A DNA stretch of 64,000 bases from Sphyrna mokarran (taxonomy: Eukaryota): positions 5,890,001 through 5,954,000 of the forward strand of contig JAGIQG010000032.1 of NCBI GenBank assembly GCA_024679065.1, in the 5' to 3' direction. A model generated the notes under the pieces. That model ran no database searches, had not been told where the DNA came from, and was given only the letters and a program-made list of their open reading frames with translations. Below are positions 5,834 to 60,564 of this stretch, piece by piece. A program made the position numbers and the translations under genes. Positions within the stretch are counted from its first letter, which is position 1. Every line of letters begins with the position of its first letter.

Positions 5834-6514
5834 TAGAACATAGAACAATACAGCACAAACAAGCCCTTCGGCCCATGAGTTGCGCTGATCACATCTACCA
5901 ATCCACAGACCTATCTATAACCCCCTATCCTATTCTTTTCCATATACTCATCCAGAAGTCTCTTAAAAGACCCCAGTGAGTTTGCCTCAACAACCTCCGA
6001 CGGCAGTCGGTTCCATTCACTCACCACCCTCTGAGTGAAAACCTACCCCTGACATCTCCTTTGTATTTGCTTCCCTGCACCTTAAATCTGTGTCCTCTCG
6101 TAGTGACCATTTCAGCTCGGGGAAATAGTCTCTGAGAGTCCACCCTATCTATCCCTCTCAACATTTTATAAACCTCTATCAGGTCGCCTCTCAACCTACG
6201 TCTCTCCAGTGAGAAGAGTCCCAGCTCCCTAAACCTATCTTCATAAGGCCTGCCTCCCAATCCAGGCAGCATCCTTGTAAATCTCCTCTGAACTCTCTCA
6301 ATAGCCTCTACATCCTTCCTATAATGAGGCGACCAGAACTGCGCACAATACTCCAACTGGGGTCTGACAAGAGTCTTATAGAGCTGCATCATTACCTCCT
6401 GACTCCTAAACTCTATTCCTCGATTAATGAAGGCCAGTACACCATACGCCTTCTTGACCACTTCCTCCACCTGAGAGGCCGATTTAAGAGTCCTATGGAC
6501 CCGGACCCCGAGAT
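5834..6514 (-). mobile_element. Young 5'-truncated CR1/HER1-type LINE (ORF2 RT C-terminus and tail)
   Basis: ORF 6021-6470 has LYKTLVRPQLEYCAQFWSP and LERRRLRGDLIEVYK; tail GGGCCGAAGGG...(TTCTA)n; near-identical to 46755-47566. Confidence 0.95.
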
Positions 6515-6593
6515 GCTACCAGATCTGCTGAGTTTTTCACGTTTTCCGCTTTTATATAGATTCCAACACTATTTTGTAGAGGAAATTAAGGAT

Positions 6594-7505
6594 TAGAATA
6601 GAATAGAATAGAACATTACAGCACAGAACAGGCCCTTCGGCCTTCGATGTTGCGCCGACCAATATAAAAAGCAATGCCCCTCCAAACTAAACCATTCCCT
6701 TCTCTTCCATATACTTATCAACTAACCTCTTAAACGCCACCAAACTTGGCGCATCTACAACTGCTGCAGGCAGGGCATTCCACTCCCGAACCACCCTTTG
6801 GGTAAAGAACCTACCTCTGATATCCGTCCTATAACTATCACCCCTTAATTTAAAGCTGTGTCCCCTCGTTCTAGCTTTTTCCATCCTAGGAAAAAAGGCT
6901 ATCACTGTCCACCCTATCTAAACCTCTAATCATCTTATATGTTTCGATCAGGTCCCCTCTTAGCCTCCTCCTTTCTAACGAAAACAACCTCAAATCCCTC
7001 AGCCTCTCCTCATAAGACCTGCCCTCCATACCAGGCAACATCCTGGTAAACCTCCTCTGTACCCTCTCCAATGCCTCCACATCTTTCTTATAATGTGGGG
7101 ACCAGAACTGCACACAATACTCCAATTGCGGCCGCACTAGAGTTTTGTACAGTTGCAACATGACGTTGCGGCTCCGAAATTCAATCCCTCTACCAATAAA
7201 AGCCAAGACTCCATATGCCTTCCTAACAACCTTCTCGACCTGACTGCCTACTTTCAGGGATCTATGCACATACACACCAAGATCCCTCTGTTCATCTAGA
7301 CTACTAGAATCCTACCATTTGCCCTATACTCTACACATTTATTATTTCTGCCATAGTGCATTACCTCACACTTTTCCACATTAACCTCCATTTGCCACCT
7401 CTCGGCCCAGCTCTGCAACTTGTCCAAGTCCCTCTGCAAACTATAACTCCCCTCTTCACTATCTACCACTCCACCGACTTTAGTGTCATCTGCAAATTTA
7501 CTAAT
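6594..7505 (-). mobile_element. 5'-truncated CR1-type LINE, second subfamily, frameshifted
   Basis: ORFs 6886-7275 and 6687-6905 encode consecutive RT C-terminal parts; KFADD motif near 7490; (TTCTA)n tail at 6594-6615. Confidence 0.95.
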
Positions 7506-8955
7506 TGTATAAGACTAAAAGAAAAAGCCTATAATATTGCTGGAAATAGTGTTAAATCTCAGGATTGGGAGAACTTTGGAAAACAGCAATGGAGGTCAGT
7601 AGCACATGACTATAAACTAGCAAAGACATAAAAAGTTAATGTTTGGCTAAAACAAACGTGGGTCCTTTACAGGAGAATTTGTTTGGAGGAATAGAGAAAT
7701 GGCAGATAAGCTAAATGTTTATTTTGTCTATCTTCACAGATTTAGAGATCCAAGAGACTAGGAAGAATGAGGAATTGAAGAATATTAGTAAGAAGGTTGT
7801 AATGGAGAAATGAATGGATCTGATAAATCCTTGGAAGTTTGTTGAAGAGGTAGTTTTGGAAATAATGTATTGGTGATCATGTTCCAAAATTCTCTAGATT
7901 TTGGAACAGTCCCTGCAGATTGGAAGCTAGCAAAAATCACCCCATTATTTAAGGAAGGAAGGAGTCTAGACCTGTTCGCCTTATATCAGTAGTAGGAAAA
8001 TAATGGAATCTATTCTGAAGGATGTGACAAATGAAAACTTGGCTCATTTATTTATAGTTTATTTATTAGTGTCACAAGTAGACTTGCAGTAACACTGCAA
8101 TGAAGTTATTGTGAAAATCCCCCTAATCATCACTAGGCATCTGTTCAGGTACACCAATGGAGAATTTAGAACGGCCGATGCAGCTAACCAGCATGACTTT
8201 CGGACTGTGGAAGGAAACCAGAGCACCAGAAAGAAACTCGAGAGAACATGCAGACTCTGCACAGACAGTGACTCAAGCCAGGAATTGAACATGGATCAAT
8301 AGTTAGCAGTGCTAACTATTGTGCCACCCTATAATGAAATGGTAATGTAGATATGTGAATGGGAAATCATATTTGATGAACCTTTACAGTTTTTTAGGAT
8401 GTTATGAACAGAATTGTTAGCGAAGTTGGTGGCATCATATAATTGGATTTTTAGAAGGCTTTTGATAAAGTTCCCCACAGAAAGTTAGTTGATAAAATTG
8501 AAGCATGTGGAATAGGAGGTAATGTATTGGCATGAATTAAGGATTGGCCAACAGAACAGAAAACAGGATAGGAATGAACGGATCGTTCTCACATTGGCAG
8601 TCTGTGACTAGTGAGATATCGCAAGGATCAATAATTGGGCCCCAGCTGTTCACAATACATGTAAATGATTTGGATTCAGGACCAAATGAAATATTTCCAA
8701 GTTTGTGGATGAGACAAAGCTAGGTGGGAGTATGTTGAAGATTTCAAGCAGTTTCAAGCGAATTTGGACGGACTTCTTCAGTGGATAAGAGCATGGTAGA
8801 TAGAATACAACGTGGGAATGTGAAGTTATCTGCTTTAGTGGGAGAAGCAGACCCTTTAAAGGGTAAAAGATTAGTAAGTGGAGATGTACAGAGGGGCCTG
8901 GATATCCTTGTCAATAAGACATGTACAGGTGCAGCAAACAGTTAGGAAGGTTAAT
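7506..8955 (+). mobile_element. Old degenerate CR1-like LINE ORF2 fragment interrupted by a V-SINE
   Basis: Remnants of DWKxA, DFxKAFDKVPH and KFVDETKLGG motifs with many frameshifts. Confidence 0.75.
8045..8330 (-). mobile_element. HE1/V-SINE, tail type B
   Basis: Reverse complement of the V-SINE head, core and tail. Confidence 0.85.
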
Positions 8956-30290: not shown

Positions 30291-32004
30291 CAAAGGATAC
30301 TTAGCGTAGACGTAGTACGTAAGAGTAGTGGGTGGTTATGTTAGAGCCGAATGGAAAACGAGTTGGACTACTGCTTACGCTCTGGCCACTGCATTACAGA
30401 AGGGATGTGATTGCACTAGAGTGGATCAGAGGAGCTTTGAAGATGTTGACATGAATGTTCTAGCTCTTTAGGAGAGAGGAGAATGAGGGATGATTTTTAA
30501 CTGAGGGATATAAAGTTCAGGGGCCTTGATTCATGAATAGAAAGTTTCTGTTTTCCTTGGTCAACAACAACTAGAGAGCCTGGACTTGAAGCAGATGCTA
30601 GAAAAGTGGGAGTGTTAATTGAGAAAGGCTTTTGCCTAGAGGGTAGAGGGGGTCTGGAATCCTGCCTGAAAGGGTGAGAAAGCAGAAATCATTGCTTCAA
30701 AGAAAAGACTTGGCTATATTCTTGTAGGGCTGTGGATTACAGACCAAAAGCTAGAAAATGGGGTTGGGTTGGATTGGATACCTCTTGGTAGGCACTGATT
30801 AGGTGGACTAAATGCCTCCTCTGTCATAGATTTCCTCTTTTCTTTGTCTTGGCTGAAATTAGTTAACAATTTTCCTGGTGTGCATGATTCACAAATTGTT
30901 CCTACCTCCAAGCAATCAACGGAGTACTTCATCTTTTTTCCTGTACTCGTTTTGACATTGACCTCTCATACATTTTTCTATTTCTTATCCTTTCCTTCCT
31001 CTAATGCTGAACTAAAATTCAAGTTTACCGACAGCCCATAGGGTACATCTTACAAATAGTATTTGAGTGTTGACCTTGAAGTTACTATAGCTTGACCTTA
31101 TCCATTGCTTGTGTACTGTCTACACAGGTAGGGTTCACAGTATTATAATCGGGTGCAAGAACTGTGACTCTCCCTTCGCAGCCCGAGAGCACTAAAGGCA
31201 CCTGTCAACACCTCAATTCTCTCAGACACTTGTCAGGGAATAAATTTATGGTCTGGAATGTGCAGGTTTTTAATCTCTTGAGGAATTTGGAAAACAAATT
31301 CTGGTCTCCTTATGTGGGAGTGACGTGATCTTTGTTTAAGTTTCCACAAAGTAGCACAGCTGAGGTTGAGAGGGTTTGGGGTCTATAGTTGTGAATCTAC
31401 AAGTGATCAATTATTGCTGCAATAGGTGAGTACACACTGTTGTTACGCTTATGTTTATTGATATGATTGTTGTCTACCTGTCTTTCTGTTGTAAATGTTG
31501 GACTTGGTGGACAACACTGACAATTGCATATCCTCAATGGAGTGTGGTGCTGGAGCAATTCAGGGCCCTGGTATGGGACTGAAGCCTCATGTAAACCAGA
31601 CCAGTTTAGGCCAACATGTTTCCTAAAAGCACATTGGAGAATGAGTTGGATTGTTAAGCATGATAGTCACTTTTTGTAATCAACCTTCTAATTTCCTAAT
31701 TCTTTTTATTGTTCGAGTTGAATTTGATTTCTTAAATTGCCATGGAATCTGTAGTGCATAATGTTATGGCTGAGAATTTTCTGTTTTTTAGTTTATTAGC
31801 TCAAGCCTCTGAGTATGTCAGTACCATAATTACTGCACTGCTGTACCTGTGTGGTGTAGTGTGTACTGTTTGATGTTTCCATTGTCTAGGCGTGCATTTG
31901 TGACTGATTCACTGTGTGTTTTTCTGGAAGGTGCACCGACATCTTCCTTTATACAATACTTTATACCTGATTATAATACTTGTATTTGACTCTGTCCCAT
32001 GCAG

Positions 32005-32115
32005 CTCTCTTGTACAGCACTTTTGGTGTTGTCATAGAAAAGGTACGAGGTGCAGAGGATGATCTGAACACAGTGGCAGCAGGATCTTTGACTGGCCTAC
32101 TTTACAAATCCACAG
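32005..32115 (+). CDS. TIMM23: TIMM23 exon 6
   Basis: (A)LLYSTFGVVIEKVRGAEDDLNTVAAGSLTGLLYKST; acceptor ATGCAG, donor GTAAAC; 111 nt. Confidence 0.98.
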
Positions 32116-34039
32116 GTAAACACAATGGCATCTGCAGTCTCAATAATCTGGGACTCCACTTGCTCACAGTGACATGCCTAGTTAGTTAGCGTCTGAAAGC
32201 TATTATGGAATTGGGGGCTACATTTGTGCACCTTGGAAGAAAGGTGAGCTGTGCCAGTTTGTGATAAAGAAGTACTTCCCAAACCTGCAAATTGTTGCAG
32301 TATTTTTGGTTTGAAAAATAACTTTACAATTCATAATTCTAAAATTGTGTAAAAAAAAAAGAAACAATTTGAGACCCTTCATAGTGCCAATTGCAAGAGG
32401 CTACGAAACCTCATTGGTCATTGATTCCAGCTATCAAGGGTATCCTGAAATGTGTTGTGTCACGTTTCTCTGGTAATGTTTAGCTATTGTCATTATGCTG
32501 CTGTTTAAAAAGAAGCAATAAAAATTGAACACAATCATTAGCTGATCAAGGCCTAATCTCCAGAAGCTTTTTGTAATCCGGGGAATTTATTAGCTTTATG
32601 AAATCTCCCCCCTTTTGGGGGGGCAGGCTGGTAATGTTCATCTAATTGGGTACTTATTGGTACTAATCACGTTGAGTTGATATCCCACATGGGTAGCATT
32701 TACATGGATATTCAGCCACTATCAATATGGATCTTTCTCTGCAGTAATCCTTCAGCTGATTGCATCCTGTTGTTGTGTTTAGATGTTTTTGGCTGCAAAA
32801 ATTTAAACTGGCAATGCATCAAAATTTACATACGGCATATGTCTATCAGAGAAAGCTGATAAATCAGTGATATCAAAAAGTTTATTAGTCACAAGTAAGA
32901 CTTACAGTAACACTGCCATGAAGTTCCTGTGAAATTCCCCAAGGCACCACACTCCAATGCGCTTAACCAGTCAGTCAGTCAGTGGGAGGAAACCAAAACA
33001 CTTGGCCAGGAATCGAACCCAGGCCTCAAGTTGTGAGGCTGCAGTGCTAATCATTGTGCCACCCTGCCAATGATCTGTCTTTTATCATGGACATTATAGC
33101 CTTGGTGCTGACTGTCTTATCCACTGCCTCAGTCCACCTGTCTTATTCCAAATTTTGTTTGTGGATTTTTCTCTTAACTTTCCATCACCCTTATGTTTTC
33201 ACCTCTCCCTCTCTTGTGAAATATTTAGATACCATGTCATGTGAGGAACTGATGAAAAGCCTCTTGTAATCTTAAAACAAAGCAAGTAGCTCAGTCTGAT
33301 CAATGTTATGCTCACAAAGTCAATCCTGATTTTCTGTAATTCAGGGATAGTCTAGATCGCTGCACTTGTTTATATGCTGAGCGCGGTGAGGCGTTGGGAA
33401 TCCGACAGGTGGTGGAATACATCCCGTGAATGGTGAATCTTTTCATGCATGCCTCAAGATAGCTGCTCTGTTTAGGCTCTAGGGTAAAAGAAAAATGTTT
33501 TCACATGTAGGCCGCCTCCTATCCCTGTGTCCTGAACAGTCCTCAAACCTGCTCGCCGATTCATTTATATCATTGATTTATATCTCAACTCCATCTGCCT
33601 GACTTGGTTCCAAAACAATTAATGCCCTTGACAAAAATCTATCAATCTCTGTTTAGAAATTGCTAATTGACCTAGTTTCTAATCTTATCGATTCTTTGGT
33701 TTTATTTTTTAAATTTTGCCAATTTATTTGGGTTGGGGGGGTAATTAATTTTTAGCTTTAGTAAGGATATTGGGTTAATCAGATATCAAAAGCGCATGCA
33801 GTGAGCTTAAGGCATTAGCATCTCTGTTCAGAGCTGCCAAAATTAAAAGGGGTGGGGGAATTTTTAGCAATGGTAACCATGAAACCATTGTCGATTATCA
33901 TTTTAAAAACTCCCCTGGTTCATTAATGCCCTCAATATGTCTTTGTAACCTACTGTCCTTACCTGGTCTGGCCTTTACATGACTTCAATCCACAGTAACT
34001 TTTAAACAGCCTCTGAAGTGGTCTAGGAAGCTCGCTGGG

Positions 34040-44965: not shown

Positions 44966-45792
44966 GGGTCACGGTCCCAGTTCATATTCTTTACCCTAAC
45001 AGCTGGGGTACTGATGCACAAAACTCCCACTGCAATGCTGCAAATGGCTAAAAATCCTTGTTTATCCTGCTTGACCAGCTTGTATTACAGAAAAACATTT
45101 CCATGCCACTAACCTTATTTGAGGGTTCGTGCCCAATCTCTTCTGATCAACAAACTCCACTGATCTTTGGGATGTATGCTCCTCGTGGACCTTGTTCAAT
45201 CTATATCAAAAGATAAAATTATTAGGGAAGGATTTAACCTGTTGCTTCAATAGTCAAACACAAGGTAGCCAGCCAGTCCTTATACCTTCTCACAGTTCAG
45301 TTACATCATGGCTATTCCATATTAGCTCATTTATTCACTCGTGGCATTATGACCCTTCATTTCTCTTGCCAAACAAAAATCTTAATAACTCACATAATGG
45401 CCAGAATTTTACTGTCCCAGCTGCCAGAGTGGGTGAGGAACAGAAAATGGAAAGGTCTGTTAACCTTGGGTGGGATTTTAGTTTTGGGACGAGTGAGGAC
45501 ATAAAATTCAGTCCAATCGGGATATTTCCTCTCAGCGTGCCACAAGTTCTCCAATATGCCTTATTTGGCCACCAGAATCATGCTTTTCAATGAGGCAGTC
45601 GCTGCACAAGCTCTTCAACCGTGCCTGGGCAGACCAGTTTCCGCCTGAGACAACGCAACAGGAGACAAACTTATGTGACATAGATAATCCTGTGCATCTA
45701 GGAAATGCCTTCCATCACACAGCTCTCTCTCTCTCTCTCAAACAAACACACAAATTCGTCCTCCCTAGTCTAATTTAAATTCCAACACTGAC

Positions 45793-45879
45793 CCGCCGAG
45801 GACCTTTGTACAGCCACTTCTCTGGGTCAAAAGGCTCCTTAAAGTGAGCAAACAGGTTGCTAAACGATACGGATTTTTC
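45793..45879 (-). CDS. NCOA4: NCOA4 exon 9b
   Basis: EKSVSFSNLFAHFKEPFDPEKWLYKGPRR resembles human DLFACMQLKVDKEKWLYRTP; acceptor TTTTTCCCATTGTAG, donor GTCAGT; 87 nt, phase 0/0. Confidence 0.88.
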
Positions 45880-46754
45880 CTACAATGGGAAAAAGAAAGA
45901 ATTCATGAATCAGAGATTTGACAAATCAGAAAGAGTGTTGCAAATATAAAATGTGTTATTATAAAACAGCATTACAAAAATTTTATTCTAATCCTTAAAG
46001 AATCACAGAACTCCTGCAGTGCACAAGGAAGCCATTTGGCCCTTCAACACTGCACCAAAATAATTCCATCTATCCACAGAACCCCACGTATTTACCCTGC
46101 TAGTCCCCTTGACATTATGAAGCGATTGAGCATGGCTGTGGGAGGAAACTGGAGCATCCAGAGGAAACGCACACAAACAAAGGGAGAACGTACAAACTGC
46201 AGAATCACCCAAGGTGGGAATCAAACCCAGGTCCCTAATGCTAATTGAAGTGCTGCCGTGCCAACCAAAGAAGGCAGCTTTAACTGCACGAAATCCAATC
46301 CCTTTCTTTCACAATGAAAACCAGATCATTGCAGTGCAGTAAAATCAGTGTCATGTTGCAGAAAGATACATCATCACTTTTATCCAAGAAGTACCCAGAG
46401 CTCGTGGCCAGAGATCAGAGTCAGATAAAGCTTTGTTTACCAAATACCTGTGACATTTTGTCATGTTTTCTAATGGTCAACTGAGCTACCAAAAATCAAG
46501 CAGCTTTCTACCCAATGTCAGATAGCGGGTGATGCAGTCACAGAGAGAGAGGGTGGGAAGAGAGAGAGAATCACAGCCATACTAAACTCCACACAACAAT
46601 TAGGATCAAGAAACCACCCATTCATCTTCAGCTTTCCTTGCATCAAGATCATTCCTAGCAGTTTGCACCAGAATCAAACTTGGTGGCTCCCTACTCAGTA
46701 TAGCTCTGTCTCATCAGCTGGAGTGTTAAACAGCTTTGGTTTCACTTAAAATGC

Positions 46755-47566
46755 AACTGAGCGGAAAAGTGGCAGATGGACTTCAACGCAGATAAATGTG
46801 TAGTGGTCCATTTTGGCAGGAATAATGGGATGAAGGAGTACAATATAAGGGGTAGGAGTCTTAGCTGTGTTGTAGAGCAGAAGGATCTCGGGGTCCGGGT
46901 CCACAGGACTCTTAAATCGGCCTCGCAGGTGGAGGAAGTGGTCAAGAAGGCGTACGGTGTACTGGCCTTCATTAATCGAGGAATAGAGTTTAGGAGTCAG
47001 GAGGTAATGATGCAGCTCTATAAGACTCTTGTCAGACCCCAGTTGGAGTATTGTGCGCAGTTCTGGTCGCCTCATTATAGGAAGGATGTAGAGGCTATTG
47101 AGAGAGTTCAGAGGAGATTTACAAGGATGCTGCCTGGATTGGGAGGCAGGCCTTATGAAGATAGGTTGAGGGAGCTGGGACTCTTCTCACTGGAGAGACG
47201 TAGGTTGAGAGGCGACCTGATAGAGGTTTATAAAATGTTGAGAGGAATAGATAGGGTGGACTCTCAGAGACTATTTCCCCGAGCTGAAATGGTCACTACG
47301 GGAGGACACAGATTTAAGGTGCAGGGAAGCAAATACAAAGGAGATATCAGGGGTAGGTTTTTCACTCAGAGGGTGGTGAGTGAATGGAACCGACTGCCGT
47401 CGGAGGTTGTTGAGGCAAACTCACTGGGGTCTTTTAAGAGACTTCTGGATGAGTATATGGAAACAAATAGGATAATTGGGTTATAGATAGGTCTGTGATT
47501 GGTAGATGTGATCGGCGCAACTCGTGGGCCGAAGGGCCTGTTTGTGCTGTGTTGTTCTATGTTCTA
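46755..47566 (+). mobile_element. Young 5'-truncated CR1/HER1-type LINE with an intact 236-aa RT C-terminal frame
   Basis: ORF 46776-47486; tail GGGCCGAAGGGCCTGTT...(TTCTA)n. Confidence 0.95.
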
Positions 47567-47579
47567 AACCAGTTTCCTT

Positions 47580-47885
47580 GAGCAGTCAAGCACAGTGATG
47601 AACACTGCTGCCTCACAGTGCCAGGAACCTGGGTTCGACTCCTGGACTGGGTTACTGTGCGCGTGGAGTTTGCACATTTTCCCCCTGTCTGTATGCGTTT
47701 CCTTCGGGTGCTCTGGTTTCCTTCCACAGTCCGAAAGACACGCTGGTTAGATGCATTGGCCGTGCTAAATTCTCCCTTAGATGCACCCGAACAGATGTCA
47801 GAGTGTGCCAACTAGGGGATTTTCACAGTAACTTAATTGCAGTGTTATTGTAAGCCTACTTCTCACATCAATAAATAAACTTTAA
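47580..47885 (+). mobile_element. HE1/V-SINE, tail type B
   Basis: Head GGGTTCGACTCC, V core and type B tail. Confidence 0.88.
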
Positions 47886-48243
47886 ACAAAGTGAAATAAT
47901 TGACGGTTAAAATAGAGATGCAGGGAGTCGGGGGAGGGGTTATGGAATTAGAATGAAACATGAACATCAGCCATGACTGGTCTCATATTCAAGCGATAAG
48001 CTGCTCATGTAGTTTCTCACTATCCCCAACAATAAATATTTGATCAGATGAATATCAATGAAGCAATTATCCTCAAAATTAACACATCTATTCTAATGCA
48101 GACAAAGTCTGCTGCAAGCGAATTTGTGAACAGGCCAAAAAAAACTTGCTGGAAAGGCTCTTTCAGTGAAAGATTAGCTGCATGGTAATACACAGTCAGA
48201 TAACATATTTACACTGGCAACGCTGCACTGCACAGATACTGAC

Positions 48244-48318
48244 CTTTGCTGGAAGCTGCTCTCGATCAACAGTGAGCTTCGAGAAAAGACTGGACACTTC
48301 AGGTATACCACTCAGTTC
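48244..48318 (-). CDS. NCOA4: NCOA4 exon 9a
   Basis: ELSGIPEVSSLFSKLTVDREQLPAK resembles human YGLPAVCDLFACMQLKVDKE; acceptor TTTATGCTTAG, donor GTCAGT; 75 nt, phase 0/0. Confidence 0.75.
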
Positions 48319-48649
48319 CTAAGCATAAACACACATACTTAAGTGCTTTGGGAAACAGCTTTGAACTTTGCAAAGTAACTCCCACTTTGTTACTAAAGCT
48401 GCACTGCACTAGCCTCAGTCTTCACTGAATATAGGGAAGATTGACAATGGCTACTGGTACATATGCGATCATGTGGAATTGCTAATAAAACTGCTGCAAA
48501 AAGGTACAACAATTGGGGACACCCACAAGTTAATGTCTCCTGAATATTAACAGCTGGCTCACAGAGGGGCTGGAGAACGAATACTCCACAGCCACAACTA
48601 ACCCCAATCGCTGAGCAAAGTGGCAGATTACTGATAATTGGCTAATGGG

Positions 48650-48910
48650 CAAATTGGTTAGCACTGCTACTTCAGTGCCAGAGAGCCAGGTTTGATTCCC
48701 AGCTCGGGTCACTCTCTGTGCACATTCTCCCTCCGGGGGTTTCCTCTGGTTCCCTCCTGCCATCCAAAAGGTGTGCTGGTTAGGTGCATTGGCTATGCTA
48801 AATTCTCCTTCAGTGTACCCAAACAGATGCCAGAGTGTGGTGACTGGGGGATTTTCACACTAACTTTATTGCAATGTTAACGTAAGCCTACTTGTGAGAC
48901 TAATAAATTA
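48650..48910 (+). mobile_element. HE1/V-SINE, tail type B
   Basis: Head TGGTTAGCACTGCT, V core and type B tail. Confidence 0.85.
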
Positions 48911-49590
48911 GAGGAGTTAAACATGGAGAGCATGACCTTGAATTTCTGGAAGTTCATTCAGAACCAGCTCATTGGGGTGACAGCACAGTTTCCTAATCAC
49001 TGACCTAATAAAGCAGAGACCTTTGGAGTCATTACTGGAGGACTTTCGCCAATTTAAAATGATTTTGAAGCAATGCCCACATGGCTAATGAGCTATAAAG
49101 TTTTCCTACTGCTCACAAACAAACCATTAAGCTGCATAACACATAGATAAGACAAAAAAAACATAGGGGCAAAAAATGTAGACCGATGAATCACTGCTGG
49201 GAATTGTTCAGACATGTTTAGCCTCAGTAGCTTAGAAAGACGTGGAGTGGGGTCTGAAATAAAATTCTTTTACATCGTAGGCGATGCGCCTTCAAGCAAG
49301 GATGTAACCTGGGCTGAAGGTAGGATGTAACTATCAAGGATGTTTATAGTTATTTAGGGTTTTCTTTGAAATTTGTCTGTGTTGTGAATGCTCAATGGGT
49401 AAAGAGATATGTCCACCTTGGGAAGTGAAGCAAAGTATTATTTTGAGCAATCTGGGGAATGGTGTTTCAGTTCATTATCAGCCCACCTTAGTGAGTGACA
49501 AGAATGAATGCACCTTATTAAATGAACAGATGACAAATATACCAAGCATCATAAAAATACAGTTCTGGGATAAGAGTTGGAGATTCTTAC

Positions 49591-50763
49591 ATGTGCTTTC
49601 TTGCGCAGCAAAAATTTATTCTCTACTTCGTGTTCAGCCCCTTTCTCTGCGCCCTCAAGTACAGTGTTAACAGGAGATTTTGATATCAGGGTTTCGTATG
49701 ACTTCACAGGATTGCTGACAGAGACCTCTGGTTCTTTTGTGGACTGTGATCGGGGATGTAGCCACTGTTCTAAATCAGTCTTCTGCTGCTCTGCACTGTG
49801 CTTGCTCGGCTGACCTGTCTGCACGCCATTCTTGTCTCTTCCCGCTTGCTTGAGTAGCCATTCGTTGACTGCCTCCTTTTCACAGCTCCGGCCACACACG
49901 CACTCCGAGAAACTGCTGCACTGCTCGTTGGCTTTACACACGTCTGCAACTCGGATTGGCAATGGTGAAGGAAGGCAGCGGGAGTTGTTTACCGACACTG
50001 GCGACGGTTTCTTGGCATTATGGTACTCACTCAGGCACTTCAGCTTGCCAAGGTTTTCGATCTCTATGGCTTTGGGCTGAACGCCACAGCAGCTATTACA
50101 GGAATCACCCTTACTTGACTTCAGAAGCCACTCGCTGGTACTGTACTTCTCTCTGAAAGGCTGAGTTATGGATTTCCATTTGTCTTCATTGGTGCTGTCA
50201 CCAGTTGCTTTTTCAGAATGTGTGTTCTTCACTTCAGCGATTGGGCTCGCTTCTTCCTCTTCTTGGTCCACAACATCCATGTCAAATTCCTCTATAAGCT
50301 CAAAGGTGGAAGAGCTACCAGATGACTCAGTACGCTGGCGTGGAGGGGTCTCCTTGGAGGGACCGGATTTCTGCTTCTCGGAAAGTAGCCAGTGCTCGAG
50401 ACCCTGACGATGACCCCAGGCCTGCAATTTGTAGTAATTCACATCGGCTGGATCCTCACTGGCGGGACTGGGATGTTGCTGTGGAGTGATCTTCTCAGTT
50501 ATGTCAAGGTTCTGCTTGCTGGTAAACAGCCAGTGCTCAAGGCCCTGCCGATGACCCCAGGCCTGCATTCTATAGTAGTTGGGATCTTTTGGGCTCAGGT
50601 TACAGCTAGTGGTGGTTTGGGTGCACTGTTGAGCAGCAATGTTCTCAGCTGGGTGATACCTTCGTTTGCTGGGGAGCAGCCAGTTCTCAAGGCCCTGTTG
50701 ACGCCCCCAGGCTGATAATTTGTAGGAGTCTGAATCTTTTGCACTGGGAGCTGGTGATGATCC
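49591..50763 (-). CDS. NCOA4: NCOA4 large exon 8 (391 codons)
   Basis: Open frame with [44 protein letters not shown] and LLRKKAH; acceptor TTTTTCCACAG, donor GTAAGA. Confidence 0.96.
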
Positions 50764-52533
50764 CTGTGGAAAAATTCAATATTGTGGTCAATTTCAGATA
50801 CCTCCTTTGCAGAATACCAATCAGACCTCAGCACTGAATCCCAACAGTAATCCACTCCAGAGATCCACACATAAAGAGTAGAACTCGAGATATATATACG
50901 TACTAACAATATATTACCCCTGAACCATCTTCCACGTATCTCAAGGGGTTACCTCTTTCAGCAGGCTTAGAGCTCCAGTTAGGCTGAGCTCATTGCAAGT
51001 CTAGATGAAAACCTACTCAGCTTCAGTGAAGGACCACGACCAGGATCAACATCTGCTCTTGAAAATAACACTCTTCTAGAGTCCACTCTATTATAAACAG
51101 GAACAATACAGCTTGCAGACCACTCACGCAGAAGACAAACATTAAAGCTCAGTTACACAAGCCTTCCCCCCACCATTTTACATGAGTAAGTGAAATATTG
51201 TCACCCACTTGTAGAATTAAATACTAGAATCAAAGCCATCATTAGGACTTGTAGTACTTAACACTGCCATTAACACTCCCTTTGTCTTGTGTCCGTGACA
51301 TTTTTGTCAAATCTCGAACTCCCACCTGACATATTTTGCTCCAACCCCTCTCCAACCATATAACCCATCATATCTCTACCTTTCCTCAGCTCTAAAGAAG
51401 TCATACAGGTTGAAATTTTAATTCTGTTCCTCTCTACACAGATGCTGCCAAGACCTGAGGTTTTTTTTCCAGCATTTTATTTTTAGTATGATTTCTCTAA
51501 TCAGTTTAAAACGATTTAATAATTATAATAAATTGCCCTGCAAATTAATGATTAGAAGGACCAGAGTTCAAGAATTATCACTTAATGAGAACCCACATGT
51601 AAGCAAAAGCATTTGCATAATAACATACGTTAACAGCGAAAGCATCTGATCCCACTTTATTTTACTAATAAACATTCCGCACTTTTTAAAAGACAGCAAG
51701 TCTTGAAAGTTTACATTAAGTTAAATCCAGCTTCAGCCTCAGCTGTAAATGCACTAAAAATAAACTGATATTTCTCAATACTTCCAACTTAAACATTAAT
51801 AGCAAACAGTTACATCTTTGATTTAAGATTGGTCAGCTTCTTAGGTCATTCCTGGATTGGAAGCAATACAAAACCTCCTTTATTTCTCATATTTCTTTTA
51901 TTATTTTAATGTGGATGGGTGAAGCACTGAACAAGGGGCACGAGCACATCTATCAAATTTTTGGACCACTGATTAAGAGCTACACACAAGTTTTCATTGC
52001 AGTATGTTTCATAGCACCAATGCAATACACAGAGAGACTAGACGGGTAAATACATGGGGCTATTGGATAGGGCCTGAGTGGGATCGTTGTCAGTGCAGGC
52101 TTGATGGGCCAAATGACACTGTAGAATTCGATGTTTTATTCTATGTTCAGTGACCATCCAGAACAATCCACAATGCTGAACAGAAATACAAATGGATTCT
52201 TTCACTCATGTGTAAAAATGAGCCCAGAGTGTGGATTATATAGAATTATAGAAAAACATTAAGCACAAACAGTTCTATGAACGTCACATCATATCTGCAC
52301 ACACTGATAAATCAAATCTGTGCTATATGCAACAGGAAGGGGAAAACTTATTTTGGTACAATGCAAAATTCTTAATTCATCATCTCAAGTTGTTCCTAAC
52401 AGGACAGACATGTGACAAGCAGTAGAAATGAGTTTATTTAGAGTAAGAAACTAATCGAATGCTTCAGTCTAAATCGGGAATGATCATCATCAGTACTCGA
52501 ATTGACAGTTCCAGGAAGTATATCGATACATAC

Positions 52534-52650
52534 CGGGCTGGACTGTTTCAGCAGACATTCTTGTAGGTTCAAGATTGGCATCCGTGCAGGAGGAGCAGGG
52601 CTATGCAGAAAGTCAGCGAGAGGGCATTCCTTTCCATTGGAGAATGATTT
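52534..52650 (-). CDS. NCOA4: NCOA4 exon 7
   Basis: KSFSNGKECPLADFLHSPAPPARMPILNLQECLLKQSSP weakly resembles human KSASGIVAVPFSEWL; acceptor TTCTTCTTTACAG, donor GTATGT; phase 0/0. Confidence 0.75.
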
Positions 52651-52919
52651 CTGTAAAGAAGAAAGGTAACATTATAGTTACCACATTACAGCAGCAGTAA
52701 CACAGCATAGTATGGCTCAATGCCCCAGGCGTCACACCTGCAGAATGTTGTACAAATGCACAAGGGAAAAAAGAGCAACTAGGGCCAACGCAATGGGACA
52801 TCAAGATCCCTGGTCACTTACCATGTCAACAGAACAGAAGTGCAATACTTCCAAGGCGAGACCTACACCCAGGTGAATGAAATTCACAAGATACTCAGTT
52901 TACAGTATGCCCATTACCA

Positions 52920-53180
52920 AATCACACAATTCTTAACAGTGCAGGTGGCTATTCTGCCCATCAAGACCGCACTGTCAGCAATCCCACTCAGGCCATATCC
53001 CCATTGCCCAACTTATTTACCCTGTTAATCCCCCTGACACTAAGGGGCAATTTCATATGGCCAATCAACCTAATCCGCACATCTTTGGATGTGGGAGGAA
53101 ACAGTCATCTGGAGCTGGAATTGAACCTGGGTCCCTGAAGCTGTGAGGCAGCAGTGCTAACCACTGTGCCACTGTCACCC
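52920..53180 (-). mobile_element. HE1/V-SINE, tail type A
   Basis: Reverse-complement head GTGAGGCAGCAGTGCTAACCACTGTGCCAC and partial core. Confidence 0.85.
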
Positions 53181-53484
53181 TCAATACACTCAAATGAGGG
53201 AAGAACTTATCACAGTCCTAAGGTTACAGCTGAATATCAGTTGTTATATTGTTCTACATTTTACATGCAAGCTTAGGTACAAAAGGTCGTAATTCATATG
53301 TGAAAGCTCAATGCAACAGCAGTATCTGCTTAATTCCAAAACAATAGTACTGTATATATCAAGGCCAATGACCTTCAAAGAGCTGACACTTAAAGATCAA
53401 AATCACAACTGAAAAAAAGGCCAAAATTAGGGAGCTTTTGACATGAAACTGAGCAAATAAATTCGTTGTTCAGATTGTCTGGTT

Positions 53485-53790
53485 GGCACAATGATTAACT
53501 CTGCTGTCTCACCGCTCCATGGACTCAAGTTCGATTCCTGGCTGGGGTCACAGTCCATGTGGAGTTTGCACATTTTCCCCATATCTGCATGGGTTTCCTC
53601 TCACACCCCAAAGACGCGCAGATCAGGTTGATTGGCCATGCAACATTGCCCTTTAGTGTCCCAGGATGTGTAGGTTAGGGGGATTAGTAGCGTGAATGTG
53701 GGATTGTGGGCACAGGGCCTCGGACAGGATTGTTGTTGATGCAGACTCAATGGGCCGAACGGCCTCCTGTAGAGATTTTAATGATTTCTA
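53485..53790 (+). mobile_element. HE1/V-SINE, tail type A
   Basis: GTTCGATTCC B box, V core and GGGCCGAACGGCCTCC tail. Confidence 0.85.
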
Positions 53791-54174
53791 TGATGATATG
53801 CGTACTCATTATGAACTATTATAAATTCAGCCGAAACTTTGGAAAACTTGCCACATCTGCATTAAATTGACACATTGAACTTTCCACACGTTCAGCAACA
53901 GTACAAGAAATGGAAGCTTAAAGAATGGTCCTTTTGGAGCTACAAATTGCAGAAGTAAATTATTTTCTCAATAGCCTCATTTATACACTCATAATCCTGC
54001 TGGAATTTCTTCAATGCCTTTACATTCTCAGTACTGTGTGATCTTCATGCAACTATTGGGAACATTAATAGTTTGTACATTTTTCTAGTGAGCGATGAAG
54101 CACATCAGGTTGAACAAACTCAGTTCACTTTCAACAGCAAGGAACATGACAAGCCACTTCTTAAAAAGTCTTAC

Positions 54175-54252
54175 TGTTGTCAGCAGTGGTACCAAGCAAT
54201 AATCCAAGTCAGCTGCCATGGTGCAAGGGCTCTTGTACTCAGTCTCTGAAAC
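54175..54252 (-). CDS. NCOA4: NCOA4 exon 6 (diverged)
   Basis: VSETEYKSPCTMAADLDYCLVPLLTT; acceptor TTTGTGTGTAG, donor GTAAGA; phase 0/0 at the expected position but little sequence similarity. Confidence 0.6.
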
Positions 54253-55321
54253 CTACACACAAACCAGAAAGAATTTTTAGGACTCCTGTAATCAGGCAGC
54301 CAACATTCACCCCAATTACATTTGCCCACACTATCACTCGCTTGGTGTAAGTGTGTACGCATTTGCCGTCCTCACTAACTTTGTTAGTCACCTGTCTTAT
54401 TTCAAAGCAGGGGCCTGAATTTAGTCCAAAAATAAAAGAATGATCTTTTTTCAGAAGGAGAAACTGTTATTTCTTATCTAGATTTCAAATCGAAGGCAAT
54501 TTACACAAGCCTCCCATCAATCTTTTTATGGCAGGAAGGAAATGGTGACCATGCCAAACTCTGCTTTGGTCACTAAAGAAGTTTACATGCTTTAGGGACA
54601 TTGCTGATTGCTCTGGGTTGGCTGCATTACTGAAAGAGCACAGTCAAGAATAATCACCCACTGAAACATTTTAAACAGGAACAATGGAGAGCAGAGCATA
54701 GCAATATCAGAACACTGCTACATCACAGCATCAGGGACGCACATTCAATTCCAGCCTTAGATCACTCTCTGTATTGAGTCTTCACATTCTCTCATTCCTT
54801 ATGGGTCTCCAGTTTCCTCCCACAGCCTGAAACATGTGCTAGTTAGGTTGACAACTATGGTTAACTGCCCCTTAGTGTCAGGTGTAAATATATGGGTTAC
54901 GGGGATTGGGCCTGGGTGGAATTGCAAACTCAATGGGCTGAATAATCTCCTTCTACACTGTAGGATTAACATGGTTTTAGAACTGCACAACTTAAAGCTG
55001 CAAAGTTGAACGTGGTTACTCAACATTATTGTAAGTGTCATGTTTAAATCTAAGGCCCCATCTAAACAGTTACACCACCCATCATCAGTGAAGCATACTG
55101 ATATACTTATAACCATAAGGGAAATTGGCCAATGCAGATAATTACCATGTTCCAAATGAGGTGTCCTCAATCATTCAGCATACACCGATAGGCAGCAGAT
55201 AAAGAATCTTTTCTCATTGCTATACCACCCTTCCAATAATAAACAAGAATTCTGATTCTCTGACATAAATATTATGAAAAATAAATATTTGTTGAACTAA
55301 CAGACTGGTTAAGATTCTTAC

Positions 55322-55430
55322 CGGTGTTTTGATGGCCCCAAAGCTTGTAATGGCTTGGCGGAGTGTTGGGACGTCAGCCTCAAAGTTCATGGTCGGAGAT
55401 TCTTCCGGTTTCAGAGTCAGGCTCTTCAAT
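55322..55430 (-). CDS. NCOA4: NCOA4 exon 5
   Basis: LKSLTLKPEESPTMNFEADVPTLRQAITSFGAIKTP; 109 nt; canonical splice sites. Confidence 0.96.
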
Positions 55431-55976
55431 CTGGAATGGGACATGTGCTAAATCAGTAACTGGCTGTGTGACTTGCCTATTTACATAACTGCTGAGGGAA
55501 AGCTGTGGAAACATTTAACACAAGCAGGCCATTCTTTATAAAAACCACAGCAGATGCTGGGAATCTAAAATAAACACGGAAAGAAAATGCTGGAAGTACT
55601 CAGCAAAAGTCAGGCAATGGAAGAGGAGAGAAATAAAGCTAATTTTTCCAAGTCGATGGCCTTTCATCAGAAATGGAAACATAATTAATTTCCTTGTCTC
55701 AGTTCATTTGCCGCTTTTTTTTCCTTCTTCAGTTAACACACTCCAAGAGAGCACTGACTCCCATTGGACGGATTTATAGTCAAGTTAAGCTCGAAGATTT
55801 TCACAATAATTTCACTGCAGTCTTAATGTAAGAATTCTGCCATCTTTCCTTTCTGTGTCATATACTTTTGTCTGCCTCAGTACAAAACTTGCTTAAAACC
55901 CGTTGCATCTTTACTCAGAATCATACACAGAGAAGAGGCCCTCCAGGCCACCAAGTCTGCACTGAGAAAGACCTTA

Positions 55977-56005
55977 CACACACACACACACATACACACA
56001 TACAC
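55977..56005. repeat. (CA)n microsatellite
   Basis: Directly visible. Confidence 0.9.
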
Positions 56006-57444
56006 CCTCCCTCCCATCTGATCCCATTTACCAACACTTGACCCACTCCAGTCAGTGCATTGCAGAGAGGTACCCTATGACCCCGGATGGCTTAAGCTCT
56101 TAAGTTTAAAGTTTATTATTGTCACTGTAGGCTTACATTAACACTGCAATCAAGTTATTCTACTCATCACACTCTGGCTTCTGTTCGGGTACATTGAGGG
56201 AAAACTTAGCATGACCAGCACACCTAATCAGCACACCTTTGGACAATGGGAGGAAATCCAGAAGACTCCACAGTCACTCAAGTTGGGAGACAGTGGTGCT
56301 AACCACTGTGCTATCCCTAATGACAGAAAGGGTAATAGCGTAAGACAAAAAAATGATAATGCAACAACCCAAGAAACAAAAGATAGATCTTGAGGCAGTA
56401 TAAATGGCAATAGCAGAATCATTACCAGTTGCAAATGTGGGGGGTAAGAAAATGTGGTTGTGAGGCTATGAAGTGCCTATAAAAAGATGAGTGTTGTCCC
56501 AAACTTCTGATCATTCTATACTGCTGAAGAGAAAGACATGTTGTGGAAGATTTTTCTCTTGCATTCAAGGCAGAACCACAAGAATACCAAATTTCAAAAC
56601 CTATCCTGATGCGTACAAGATGAAAAGCTTCAACAGCTCATCTTTTTTTCAGCGAAGGCAAATGGCCATTTTAAACATTCCTCCTTTTGGGGGCATTTCT
56701 ATTGATATGAAAATCACTGCAGGTTAGGACAGTGGCTGCTATCCCAATTCCCATATAACCCAATTTTAGTTACACTGCTGCTGTTTTTAACATAGAAGCT
56801 GATCCCTGACTCCAAAAATCTTTAATTTGAATGACTGGCACTGAATCTAACACCTTTCTAATCAGTCACAGAATCCCAAACCCTTGCTACCCAGTCGCGC
56901 ACAGCTATGCATTAAATAAAGTGGGTCTACTAGTTATAGGCCAAAAGCCATTTGTTACATATAGGCTGAGTATCATTTAGTCACAAGTTCAAAAGCCAAA
57001 CATATCCAAAAACAGCACTTTTTTTTTTAACCCTATTGATCTTTAGGATAGGAAGTCCAGTTGTTTGTCAGTACTGTTTACCTTGTGGATTTTGTGGGGA
57101 ACATGTCAAAATGAGACTTGTTAAAGATACTGCATTTATTATTCAGGGACGCAACTTAATTTTCTGGACATTTTATTTACTTTAGACCATAGCTATCGCA
57201 GGACTAGGTTATTGTATTGTATGTTTATATATGATGTCCTAAAACCAAAATTATTTGAAGTCTGAAATACAATTGGCTCCAAGGGCTTTGGCTAAAGAAT
57301 ATTTGATCTATCACAGGTACAAAGTAAAAGGCTTTAAGGATTTTAGCTGAAGTTATTCTGCATTTAATTTTGATTTCAACTTCATAACATATACCGACAA
57401 TGAGTTCCTTAAAAAGCCACAACTTGGAGCGTGGCAGTTCTCAC

Positions 57445-57533
57445 CTCTCCAGGCAGGTTATAATTTGATCAGTTGGAAGGTTACTCTGGGGATGTTCCAA
57501 TTGGTGAATAAGGCAGTTGAACTGACCCAGCAG
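57445..57533 (-). CDS. NCOA4: NCOA4 exon 4
   Basis: LLGQFNCLIHQLEHPQSNLPTDQIITCLE(R); 89 nt; acceptor TTTTCCCACAG, donor GTGAGA. Confidence 0.96.
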
Positions 57534-57660
57534 CTGTGGGAAAATAAAAATTGCATTTATACTTGTATCATGGTACAGCTCAAAAAAATAACTGCGCACT
57601 TCAACTATTCTTGTGTATGGTAAACGTGGCAGCCATTCTGCAGAGCAGCAACCTACATGT

Positions 57661-59010
57661 AACAGAGAGATTAATGGAGTGATCAGCAAGTTTGCAGATG
57701 ATACAAAGATGGCTGGACTTGCGGATAGTGAGGAGCATTGTCAGGCGATGCAGCAGGACATAGATAAGCTGGTAGCTTGGGCAGAAAGATGGCAAATGGA
57801 ATTCAATCCTGATAAATGCGAGGTGATGCATTTCAGGAGAAAGATTATTGGGGAGAGGTATATGGTAAAGGGTAGACCTATTAACAGTATAGAAACGCAG
57901 AGGGACCTGGGGTGCAGGTGCACAAGTCTCTGAAGGTGGAGAAGGTTGTGAAGAAAGCATAAGGTATGCTAGCCTTTATAGGAAGAGGTATAGAGTACAA
58001 GAGTTGGCCTTTAATGTTGCAGTTGTATAAAACATTGGTTAGACCTCATTTGGAATACTATGTCCAGTTCTGGTCGCCTTACTACCGGAAGGACGTGGAG
58101 ACTCTGCAGAGAGTGCAGAGGAGGTTTACCAGGATGATGCTTGGTATGGAAGGTGTGAGTTACGAGGAGAGGTTAGGCAAATTGGGGCTGTTTTCCTTAG
58201 AAAGACGTAGACTTAGAGGAGATCTAATAGAGGTGTACAAGATTATGAGGAGTATAAATAGAGTAACCAGGATTAAGCTTTTTCCTAAGATGGACTCAAA
58301 TAGCACAAGGGCTCAAGGGCTTAGGGTGAGGGGGGTAAGGTATAATTTGTATGCTAGAGGGAGTCTTTTCACACAGAGAGTGGTGGGGGTATGGAACGCG
58401 CTGCCAAGTAAAGTGGTAGAGGCAGGCACTCGAGTTATTTAAGAGATACTTAGATGGGCACATGAACAGAATGGGAATGGAGGGGTAAGGAAAACTGATT
58501 TAAAATAGGGATAATGAGCCTGGGGAGTCCCTGGGAAGTGTGTAAATAGACGATGATATTGATGTACTTGTTTTTATCCTGCAGGTGCTTTGGTCCGCCT
58601 AACAAGAGGCGTACACGCGATGGGTCGTGAGAAGGCTGCTCTTGGATTTTTCAAGAGTATCCTAGTGCTTCACGTCATTAGTGTACACTTGACCTGGACC
58701 ATTTGATGGGCAACACAACAGCTCAGTGACTATGCTGTGCTGTGCAGATACATGGATTTGGGCTTGTGTCTGTGGGAGTTTGTGCATTCTCCCCGTACTT
58801 GCGTGGGTTTTCTCCAGGTGCTCTGGTTTCCTCCCACATCCCAAAGATGTGCTCTTAGGCTAACTGGCAGACAAATTCTCCCTAAATTGTCTCAAATTTG
58901 GTTTCAATCCATAAATCTATAAACATAAGACAGGGATCATGGGAACATTGAGGCGGCGGCGCATGCTTGTTGGGCTGAAGGGTCTGTTTCCCGTGCTGTT
59001 TTTTCTTTGT
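57661..59010 (+). mobile_element. CR1-type LINE (RT from KFADDTK onward) with V-SINE-containing 3' UTR
   Basis: ORFs 57613-57933 and 57966-58442 carry RT motifs; the 3' UTR is homologous to 40880-41352. Confidence 0.93.
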
Positions 59011-59593
59011 AGTCATTCATTTATGGAGAAATCGCAAAAAAGAGTTGCAGCAGAAACTAAAGATATACAAAGTTGTAAAGAAGTTGTAGAAATAGGGAGC
59101 AATTAAATCTTGGAAGAAATTAAGACAAGGATCTAAAGTTAAACATTTGAAGGGGAGGGACTGGGAGCTGGTGTTTTGGGACATGCAGTGTCTATGGGAC
59201 ATAAGGTGTAACAATAGAAAAATTAAGTCTCAACATTATAAAAGCGAAGATAAAGATTTTAGTGGCAGACACAGGTTGACGGCAGACAATTTTGCGTAAA
59301 TAGGCAATGAAGACAAAATACTGGCTGTTTCAGTCATGAGGTACACCAGCTCTAGATTTTAGTTTATACATTGGGTTAGTTTACCTCTAAATAGGCTACA
59401 CTTGTGAGCAGGAATAACATAAAATTTAATACCACATAATTATCAACATATTCACAAAAACCTCACAGCAAACTCGCAAGCATTGCATCGTCCTTTTAAA
59501 TGGAATGCACAACCAAAGTTCCAAAAATGTTGCTTTTCTATTTTAAGTCCAACTTCTAGAATTGTTACTTTAATGGCATAACCATTCCCTTAC

Positions 59594-59734
59594 ACAGTAA
59601 AGCTGCTGAATCTGTTGCTGCAGGGCTTCTTCCTTCAGCTGTTGCAGTAGATCGATCTGTTCCAAGAGATAAACCTCTCGACTCCGCAGGCACTCTAAGT
59701 GACGGCTGATACAGCTATGAATTTGAAATTTTAC
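59594..59734 (-). CDS. NCOA4: NCOA4 exon 3
   Basis: VKFQIHSCISRHLECLRSREVYLLEQIDLLQQLKEEALQQQIQQLYC is a hallmark ARA70-domain sequence; 141 nt. Confidence 0.98.
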
Positions 59735-59897
59735 CTACAAAAGACCAAGGAACTAATCAATGGCATTCCACATACAAGAAATGGCATGTTAGAATGAATA
59801 AAAAAATCTACAGGCTGCAGTATTAATAAAACTTTTGTTTTACTTAAGACTTGAGTGTTCTCATCTAGCACCTAACATGATCCAAAGAACAGCTTAC

Positions 59898-60047
59898 CTC
59901 CTTACTGTTTGCTTTTATCTCCTGTTCAGCTTTAATGATACTGCTAATGGCAGTCTCCAAATCTCGTTTAGCCTGGGTGCAATTCATTATCAAATCCTTT
60001 GGTTGGCAGTTTGTACTTTCCCCACCCTGTTTGCGTGTTGGATTCAT
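59898..60047 (-). CDS. NCOA4: NCOA4 first coding exon (exon 2; acceptor places the exon start at 60055)
   Basis: MNPTRKQGG...CTQAKRDLETAISSIIKAEQEIKANSKE resembles human CSDARRDLELAIGGVLRAEQQIKDNLRE; donor GTAAGC. Confidence 0.94.
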
Positions 60048-60564
60048 CTTGGTCTCTGTTGAGAAAAAAAGTTGTTAAGATAAACATAGCCATGGAATGT
60101 CAATACAATGCAAGATTAGCAGGCTGTCACACTCCCAACGCCCAAGAAATGCCAGTAACTTAAAAACAGCTTAATGTAAGGAATACCAATTACTGACTGT
60201 TCAAATTCATGCTGATTTTATGTTAGTTCACTTAACAGCCTGACTCTGACCAACATTCTACAGAGCACCATTTAGATTCAGATCCTCAAAGCACTTGGCT
60301 CTCCCCCCACATATACAAAGTAAAGTCTTTATTGGTTATTTTAAATTATGATACAGAGATGCCAGCGTTTCCAGAAGCTTGTGGCTTTACTATCAAATAA
60401 ACTGGTTGGACTTTAACGTGGTATTGTGAGATACTTGCTGTATTTTAAATTATATCAGAGCTCTTCTGATGTTACACCTGGTGACTCAGGCTATGCTTTT
60501 GTAGAGGAGAGAGAATTTAAGTGTAGATCTGGGGAAGGATGTAAACATCTCCAATGAAGGCTCG

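Follow-up and report, generated by a model that had tools for sequence, protein, structure and literature searches.

The window, a stretch of 64,000 nucleotides, carries on its minus strand three in-frame copies of a short tryptophan-containing module within a single exon of NCOA4. This raises the question of where the copies come from, whether they are being kept, and what they could be for. The initial annotation regarded them as an old internal triplication which multiplied a short binding motif, possibly raising avidity for ATG8-family proteins, cargo or self-condensation. The reading we tentatively put forward is that two tandem duplications in one exon produced three WG-x-LExWL copies, which quite possibly serve as aromatic stickers for iron-responsive NCOA4 condensates.

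The NCOA4 gene and its repeat exon

The protein encoded in the window gives a Pfam ARA70 match (PF12489) above the cut-off with an E-value of 3.7e-13, and it has both the ARA70 domain and the N-terminal coiled coil by which an NCOA4/ARA70 orthologue was recognised. Its database matches are named NCOA4, with 69-76% identity to named galeomorph shark NCOA4 and 91% identity to one transcript-derived protein. The N-terminal exons of the gene are 73-100% identical to shark NCOA4 (tblastn), and NCOA4 is a single locus in the genome from which the window was taken. The features of the gene, with identities calculated over 15 chondrichthyan sequences, are as follows:

45147..60047, minus strand: NCOA4 coding span with 10 coding exons (tblastn of P0002 and P0032 on the window; splice ends read from the sequence)
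52534..52650, minus strand: upstream exon in which two WL sites of bony vertebrates have eroded counterparts, PLADF and LQECLL (alignment, tblastn)
49591..50763, minus strand: large exon of 1173 nt holding all three copies (AG/GT ends; joined by splicing on either side in the contigs of runs X1, X4 and X8)
50674..50724, minus strand: repeat core 1, the least conserved, its front half eroded in rays (identity 0.58)
50575..50673, minus strand: linker 1, 33 codons, homologous to linker 2 by DNA alignment (identity 0.56)
50524..50574, minus strand: repeat core 2, with Y, R, Q, R, L, H, W and L invariant in 15/15 (identity 0.84)
50434..50523, minus strand: linker 2, 30 codons, longer in Hypanus and Mobula, where the spacing is 53 and 65 aa (identity 0.44)
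50383..50433, minus strand: repeat core 3, with Y, Q, A, W, L, E, W and L invariant in 15/15 (identity 0.85)
49828..49944, minus strand: intact Cys-rich Fe-S / HERC2-binding segment with FSECV, the counterpart of the first human GATE16 motif (PDB 9l93_C match)
49640..49720, minus strand: approximate place of the deleted tetrapod-type ferritin-binding helix, human 484-499 (alignment columns 701-800)

The large exon is coding exon 7 of 10 and lies in an open frame of 408 codons (50775 to 49549, minus strand). The label 'exon 8' used for it initially presumably comes from human numbering and would require one non-coding exon.

Sequencing runs guessed to be RNA were used for checking the exon, and they are taken to be mRNA because their contigs show spliced joints. 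The contigs of run X1 have zero differences to the large exon and join it at canonical ends (52534 to 50763 and 49591 to 48317), while in runs X4 and X8 the large exon and the upstream exon are found together on single 4.1-kb contigs. The repeat region is also covered in one gap-free piece in all four runs from related organisms. Run X2, a metatranscriptome, was left out, as it covers the exon only in pieces. The repeats are thus present in mRNA, with the exon spliced whole in the contigs of three runs, and an internal or downstream acceptor excluding them, which the initial annotation had raised as an objection to itself, was not seen in the run contigs, from which rare isoforms are lost. Run X1 also has low-depth contigs over the introns flanking the large exon (48289-48793, 48830-49619 and 50735-52423; depth 5-27 versus 940), which is consistent with pre-mRNA or some intron retention.

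The Cys-rich segment, for which Fe-S and HERC2 binding and the first GATE16 motif have been reported (PMC10196804, PMC12872393), keeps its four cysteines in the window protein and has an identity of 0.93 over the 15 chondrichthyan sequences; with the Stegostoma orthologue as query, the PDB 9l93_C match has an E-value of 1.6e-14. The N-terminal LxxLL box (59591-59596, minus strand) reads LYCLL in the window, LYWLL in 13 named chondrichthyans and LHCLL in a close relative. A C-terminal LF-x11-W-L module appears by eye to be duplicated in cartilaginous fishes, in two exons (48243-48317 and 45792-45882, minus strand); the copies are SSLFSKLTVDREQL, which is without its W, and NLFAHFKEPFDPEKWL, and the Narcine record is without the first copy.

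Elsewhere in the window, positions 31977-32186 (plus strand) contain a frame holding VVIEKVRGAEDDLNTVAAGSLTGLLYKSTG, which we take to be TIMM23, the neighbour of NCOA4 in human. Positions 426-755 are a degenerate short tandem repeat with open frames on both strands. Fragments with reverse-transcriptase-like frames, presumably of the CR1 type, are found at 6024-7514, 46749-47483 and 57592-58439, and 6024-6515 and 46761-47483 are near-identical.

Descent and conservation of the three copies

All three cores belong to a single open frame of the minus strand, with start-to-start distances of 150 and 141 nt, exactly as first annotated. A repeat finder grouped three 71-nt copies, spaced 141 and 150 nt and 66-82% alike, into one family, and a degenerate codon pattern for the core gave 3 matches in the window versus 0 in 100 shuffles. 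Linker 1 and linker 2 align as DNA with a score of 48.5, which was reached by none of 2000 shuffles. Homology between the linkers is thus still recognisable in DNA, so that duplication involved the whole block of 47-50 codons; the linkers have indeed diverged, as had been noted, but the cores are not the sole duplicated part. An assembly artefact or a gene duplication was ruled out, as the copies are only 66-82% alike, are common to several species and belong to one locus.

The chondrichthyan set consisted of 15 sequences: the window, 13 named species (sharks, rays and Callorhinchus) and one further sequence. The bony-vertebrate set of 35 sequences covered lizards, snakes, frogs, Amia, Polyodon and teleosts together with ten sequences placed by likeness, and held no named mammal. 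All 15 chondrichthyan sequences have three units. Among the bony vertebrates one module is found in 33/35, none by pattern in 2/35 and more than one in 0/35; an extra pattern match in P0029 is an unrelated acidic site. The mammal-like protein P0045 has one copy, IWGNFKGLENWLH, with the tryptophans at W252 and W261 of 619 aa; the initial annotation likewise gives a single motif for human NCOA4. The triplication is thus specific to the lineage (15/15 chondrichthyans versus 0/35) and is not, as the initial annotation had allowed, a state common to most non-mammalian vertebrates. No WG module was found within residues 180-360 of 42 outgroup proteins, nor in two proteins, probably from cyclostomes, branching between invertebrate-type and jawed-vertebrate NCOA4.

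Units for the tree were cut by anchor and not from MAFFT columns, because MAFFT wrongly paired copy 3 with the bony module and copies 1-2 with WL sites further upstream. The tree comprised 49 units and 43 columns, with 42 chondrichthyan units (P0002 was left out) and 7 bony ones. All 42 chondrichthyan units are split from the bony units with support 94/93, copy 1 (99/97) and copy 3 (99/98) of the elasmobranchs each form a clade, and for 40/42 chondrichthyan units the nearest neighbour is the same position in another species. This position-wise grouping rules out concerted evolution within species for the elasmobranchs. As the outgroups are without the WG module, the polarity rests on the 43-column tree. 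The separation of chondrichthyan from bony units and the grouping by position indicate that the 47-50-codon unit was triplicated on the chondrichthyan stem, and the simplest reading would be two duplications there, before the chimaera-shark split about 400 million years ago. The proposal of an old internal triplication is borne out. In the tree, the units of the chimaera are not sorted by position. The best match of its linker 1 is linker 1 in 13/14 elasmobranch sequences, and that of its linker 2 is linker 2 in only 5/14. Both the ungrouped units and the linker 2 matches would fit an expansion that was partly independent in chimaeras.

In the literature searched, with subscription journals outside its coverage, we found no paper on shark NCOA4 repeats. 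Gain or loss of copies of a short motif within a disordered region is already known as a type of event, and turnover of WL modules is common in the NCOA4 family.

Mean pairwise identity over the 15 chondrichthyan sequences is 0.76 for the cores and 0.50 for the linkers (p 2e-7, with columns treated as independent), and the conservation of copy 1 (0.58) is no better than that of linker 1 (0.56). Between the cores, with about 10 synonymous sites each, pS/pN is 0.50/0.07 for copies 2 versus 3, 0.53/0.21 for 1 versus 2 and 0.70/0.14 for 1 versus 3. The statement in the initial annotation that the cores differ largely at synonymous positions therefore holds per site in all pairs, but not by count for copies 1 and 2, which have 8.5 non-synonymous and 5.5 synonymous differences. 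Four close relatives have 23 variable sites, with 5 synonymous and 3 non-synonymous in the cores and 5 and 7 in the linkers; the difference between core and linker is not significant (Fisher p 0.67, flanks pooled), with pN/pS 0.15 versus 0.36.

These numbers bear on whether the copies have any function of their own. It is very improbable that a slippage duplication was simply tolerated in a disordered region, with the likeness of the copies due to slow shark evolution. Erosion of copy 1 in rays, the non-significant test among close relatives and linkers that remain alignable would all agree with such an origin; cores 2 and 3, however, have identities of 0.84-0.85 against 0.44-0.56 in adjoining linkers of the same age, and pN/pS between them is about 0.15. 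Conservation thus argues that copies 2 and 3 are under selection, whereas copy 1 is being eroded, most strongly in rays. The purifying selection proposed initially for the copies in general is accordingly kept for copies 2 and 3 (0.84-0.85 versus 0.50 in linkers, pN well below pS) and given up for copy 1.

In composition, the cores of cartilaginous fishes have a mean of 3.1 Tyr+His versus 0.8 in bony fishes and tetrapods, and 1.4 D+E versus 2.7 in bony vertebrates. WG is kept in 36/45 chondrichthyan units, the G after W is replaced in 8/45, and one unit is without the W of the segment. An Argonaute-hook (GW/WG) reading was considered and set aside.

The ferritin-binding site and its pocket on FTH1

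The human ferritin-binding element is reported as aa 484-499, with F486, I489, P493 and W497 docking in a cleft of FTH1 formed by N22, R23 and F82 (PMC11076521, PMC4592949). According to the first of these reports, N22 and F82 contact W497, and N22A abolishes binding (PMC11076521). The canonical pattern of the F486/I489/P493/W497 type was found in 0/14 chondrichthyans and 0/14 ray-finned fishes, compared with 16/17 tetrapod-like NCOA4s, one probable cyclostome (hagfish-type) outgroup and 15/42 outgroup proteins. What is left of the helix is a worn TELAAWL in the chimaera and a remnant without W in Heptranchias, and in the other chondrichthyans the helix is deleted. On a profile of the site, the best score among the five chondrichthyans scored is 3.7, versus 24-38 for true sites. 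A search of positions 45000-60100 in six frames gave no hidden exon for the site; its two pattern matches lie one on the wrong strand and one in an upstream intron.

On the ferritin side, S22 and L82 are found in 3/3 chondrichthyan FTH1 sequences from the database (skate, chimaera and one relative) and in the genome of the window, and N22 and F82 in 9/9 bony FTH1 picked from 120 matches. The FTH1 gene of the window's genome has four exons (G000:C1437:81209000-81218900, L019:672-6569); it keeps A19 and R23 and has S22 and L82 changed. Judged by sequence, both sides of the known NCOA4-ferritin interface are changed in cartilaginous fishes, and the loss of the known ferritin-binding site from the window protein is a point that the initial annotation missed.

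Ray-finned NCOA4 (P0017, P0021, P0027, P0044 and others) is missing the first half of the helix and mostly keeps an LSxW or PLxxW end, and ray-finned FTH1 keeps N22/R23/F82. Of the invertebrate-type NCOA4 proteins, 15/42 (P0070, P0075, P0076, P0079, P0119 and others) have motifs that share the register of the human ferritin helix, one or two each and often earlier in the protein, an example being FKQILNTPTSQW. The ferritin grip may belong to an old family of WL modules.

The genome of the window also has large tandem arrays of intron-containing ferritin genes of two types, on contigs C960, C771, C927 and C1005 (L020, L021), as seen in 150 matches scored of 581 candidates. The expanded type, shark FTH1b, has D19 in 42/54 and K23 in 47/54 database members. 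A ferritin expansion in sharks has already been published (PMC13214024; 10.1101/2024.09.09.611499). In the accessible parts of these papers, the former assumes NCOA4-mediated ferritinophagy in general terms and does not examine the NCOA4 sequence, and the latter does not mention NCOA4. With the helix lost and the FTH1 pocket changed, one has to ask by what route, if any, iron is recovered from ferritin in sharks; this is relevant to proposals in the literature that the expansion of shark ferritins influences ferroptosis and longevity.

Could the repeats have become the ferritin site? Three L-x-x-W...L-E-x-W-L modules would then dock on neighbouring subunits of the 24-mer. The canonical helix is missing in 14/14 chondrichthyans, the FTH1 pocket is changed to S22 and L82 with R23 kept, and the repeat shares with the human site an L-x-x-W-L end, its hydrophobics being at -9 and -12 (human site: -8 and -11). 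We nevertheless regard such a replacement as unlikely. The repeats score -11 to -25 on the ferritin-site profile without gaps, and with a gap no better than other WL sites; ray-finned fishes are also without the full pattern (0/14), yet have no triplication; and the changes in FTH1 would fit a plain loss of the interaction equally well. In human NCOA4, mutation of I489/W497 or loss of 490-499 is reported to remove ferritin binding despite an intact single module (PMC4592949). A complex prediction of skate FTH1 (P0281) with repeats 2-3, which scored 0.00 in both runs with alignments unused and controls not folded, weighs on neither side. It is likewise doubtful that ferritinophagy has been rewired as a whole, with the helix dropped, the FTH1 pocket changed and the triplicated WG-LExWL acting as a trivalent ferritin grip, possibly for FTH1b too.

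Candidate roles of the repeated module

The repeat region would be without a folded domain according to AlphaFold2, which gave a mean pLDDT of 50.2, zero residues of at least 70 and weak helices on cores 2 and 3, from a shallow 15-row alignment. A PDB sequence search found no match to the repeat and one match only, to the Fe-S segment, and the ESM Atlas gave one match, to KNL1 MELT, with a score of 0.76, which is within chance.

ATG8 binding had been one of the purposes initially offered. Human NCOA4 is reported to bind GATE16 via two avid LIR-like motifs, 413-FAECV and 485-SFQVI (PMC12872393). The second of these (485-489) falls in the segment that is deleted here, and the first has the counterpart FSECV. 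As the human protein needs both motifs, the copies might replace the lost second one, and a YY[KR][LV] or YFRL core after an acidic/polar run is present in at least one copy of about 14-15/15 sequences (copy 3: 13/15). This is nonetheless distinctly unlikely as their purpose. The invariant tryptophans are out of the [WFY]xx[LIV] register, being followed by G-H-R and L-L-[PST]; the [WFY]-x-x-[LIV] core occurs in only 16/45 units, about the shuffled rate (40-57% of shuffled units hold one), and 13 of these are in copy 3 with a basic residue inside; and rays have E, K or D at the last position in copy 2. Basic residues within a LIR are unfavourable. The two mapped GATE16 motifs of human NCOA4 are also located elsewhere. 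ATG8 binding is accordingly not supported as the purpose of the triplication, copy 3 being a possible but weak second LIR.

There is a rather small chance that another folded protein with tryptophan pockets, such as TAX1BP1, a nuclear receptor or one so far unconnected with NCOA4, is the docking partner of the module, the triplication raising local valency for it. The W-x8-W spacing and WG have been kept over the whole age of jawed vertebrates, in 33 bony and 36/45 chondrichthyan units, and in 13/42 outgroup proteins the corresponding place, ahead of the acidic patch, is taken by an IxxWLxxI motif. Furthermore, ferritin is degraded more effectively in wild-type human cells than in those with the 383-522 fragment, which indicates a contribution from other regions (PMC12872393). 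Against a partner of this kind, deletion of IDR1 is reported to spare ferritin degradation, which needs TAX1BP1 (PMC9452830), the accessible NCOA4 literature surveyed maps no partner to the module segment, and the segment has no PDB structure.

Raised avidity as a net effect, suggested in the initial annotation, is doubtful. Chondrichthyans have 7-10 W-[LIVM] sites after residue 150 (mean 8.0, n=14) versus 10-14 in bony vertebrates (mean 12.6, n=31), and the triplication came without a rise in total number because more WL sites were lost than gained. Such sites are a family-wide trait, with 8-20 per protein in the 42 outgroup proteins.

Of the three options in the initial annotation, self-condensation appears the most plausible. 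Human NCOA4 aa 167-334 (IDR1) is reported to bind Fe3+ and to drive condensation (PMC10196804), and deletion of IDR1 to suppress ferritin-NCOA4 puncta while ferritin degradation persists (PMC9452830). The IDR1 deletion primer of the latter study, translated by hand, ends the deletion just before RETSEKF, which in P0045 lies downstream of the place of the module (W252/W261). Since the deletion ends there and the P0045 module is at 252-261, we infer that the module lies inside human IDR1.

Under the condensation reading, two tandem duplications of the 47-50-codon block would have given three WG-x-LExWL copies versus one in bony vertebrates, in the counterpart of IDR1. Each core would form a short helix-break-helix upon contact, and the copies as aromatic stickers would help NCOA4 to self-associate into iron-responsive condensates. 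The added Tyr and His could, as a further guess, supply Fe3+ ligands, and the triplication would in part make up for several other WL sites that the chondrichthyan lineage lost. As expected of stickers, the aromatic motifs are repeated, and the region that contains them has no stable fold by prediction (pLDDT 50, shallow 15-row alignment). The IDR1 deletion, the only functional evidence touching the module, is not specific to it: human IDR1 also holds about four WL sites and an acidic tract, and the effect on condensation could stem from any of these, which counts against the sticker reading. The exact spacing and the invariant polar residues (Q, R, E, H) would also be more in keeping with a defined binding pocket than with a generic sticker.

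The triplication is a natural experiment that marks a 17-residue module in the condensation region of NCOA4, a module also carried by humans. If the repeats only tune condensation, it is a modest lineage variant.

Tandem arrays of short motifs in disordered scaffolds are known from the MELT repeats of KNL1 and the GW/WG repeats of GW182. As in shark NCOA4, the copy number of a short motif changes there by lineage inside an exon; no sequence relationship to the shark repeats is shown, the KNL1 match in the Atlas (0.76) being within chance. The human ferritin-binding element (PDB 8QU9, PMC11076521) resembles the repeats in being a short motif in a disordered region with an L-x-x-W-L end, and its layout of helix, break and short helix is hinted at for the repeats by the low-confidence model. 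The repeats differ from it in position and descent, and are without P at -4 and hydrophobics at -8/-11. Like the LIR/AIM motifs of NCOA4 (413-FAECV and 485-SFQVI, PMC12872393), which are aromatic-aliphatic and reported to act by avidity, copy 3 holds an aromatic-aliphatic YYKL; unlike them, the repeats have the conserved W out of register, most units are without a core, and the FSECV counterpart is separate and downstream. The single bony-vertebrate module, part of the second ARA70 match (PF12489) and of human IDR1, has been ascribed no function in the accessible NCOA4 literature surveyed. It has the same position in the protein as the shark repeats and shares with the shark units the W-x8-W spacing and the LExWL end followed by a Ser-rich and acidic tract, whereas the shark repeats are three in number, richer in Tyr/His (3.1 versus 0.8) and less acidic (1.4 versus 2.7).
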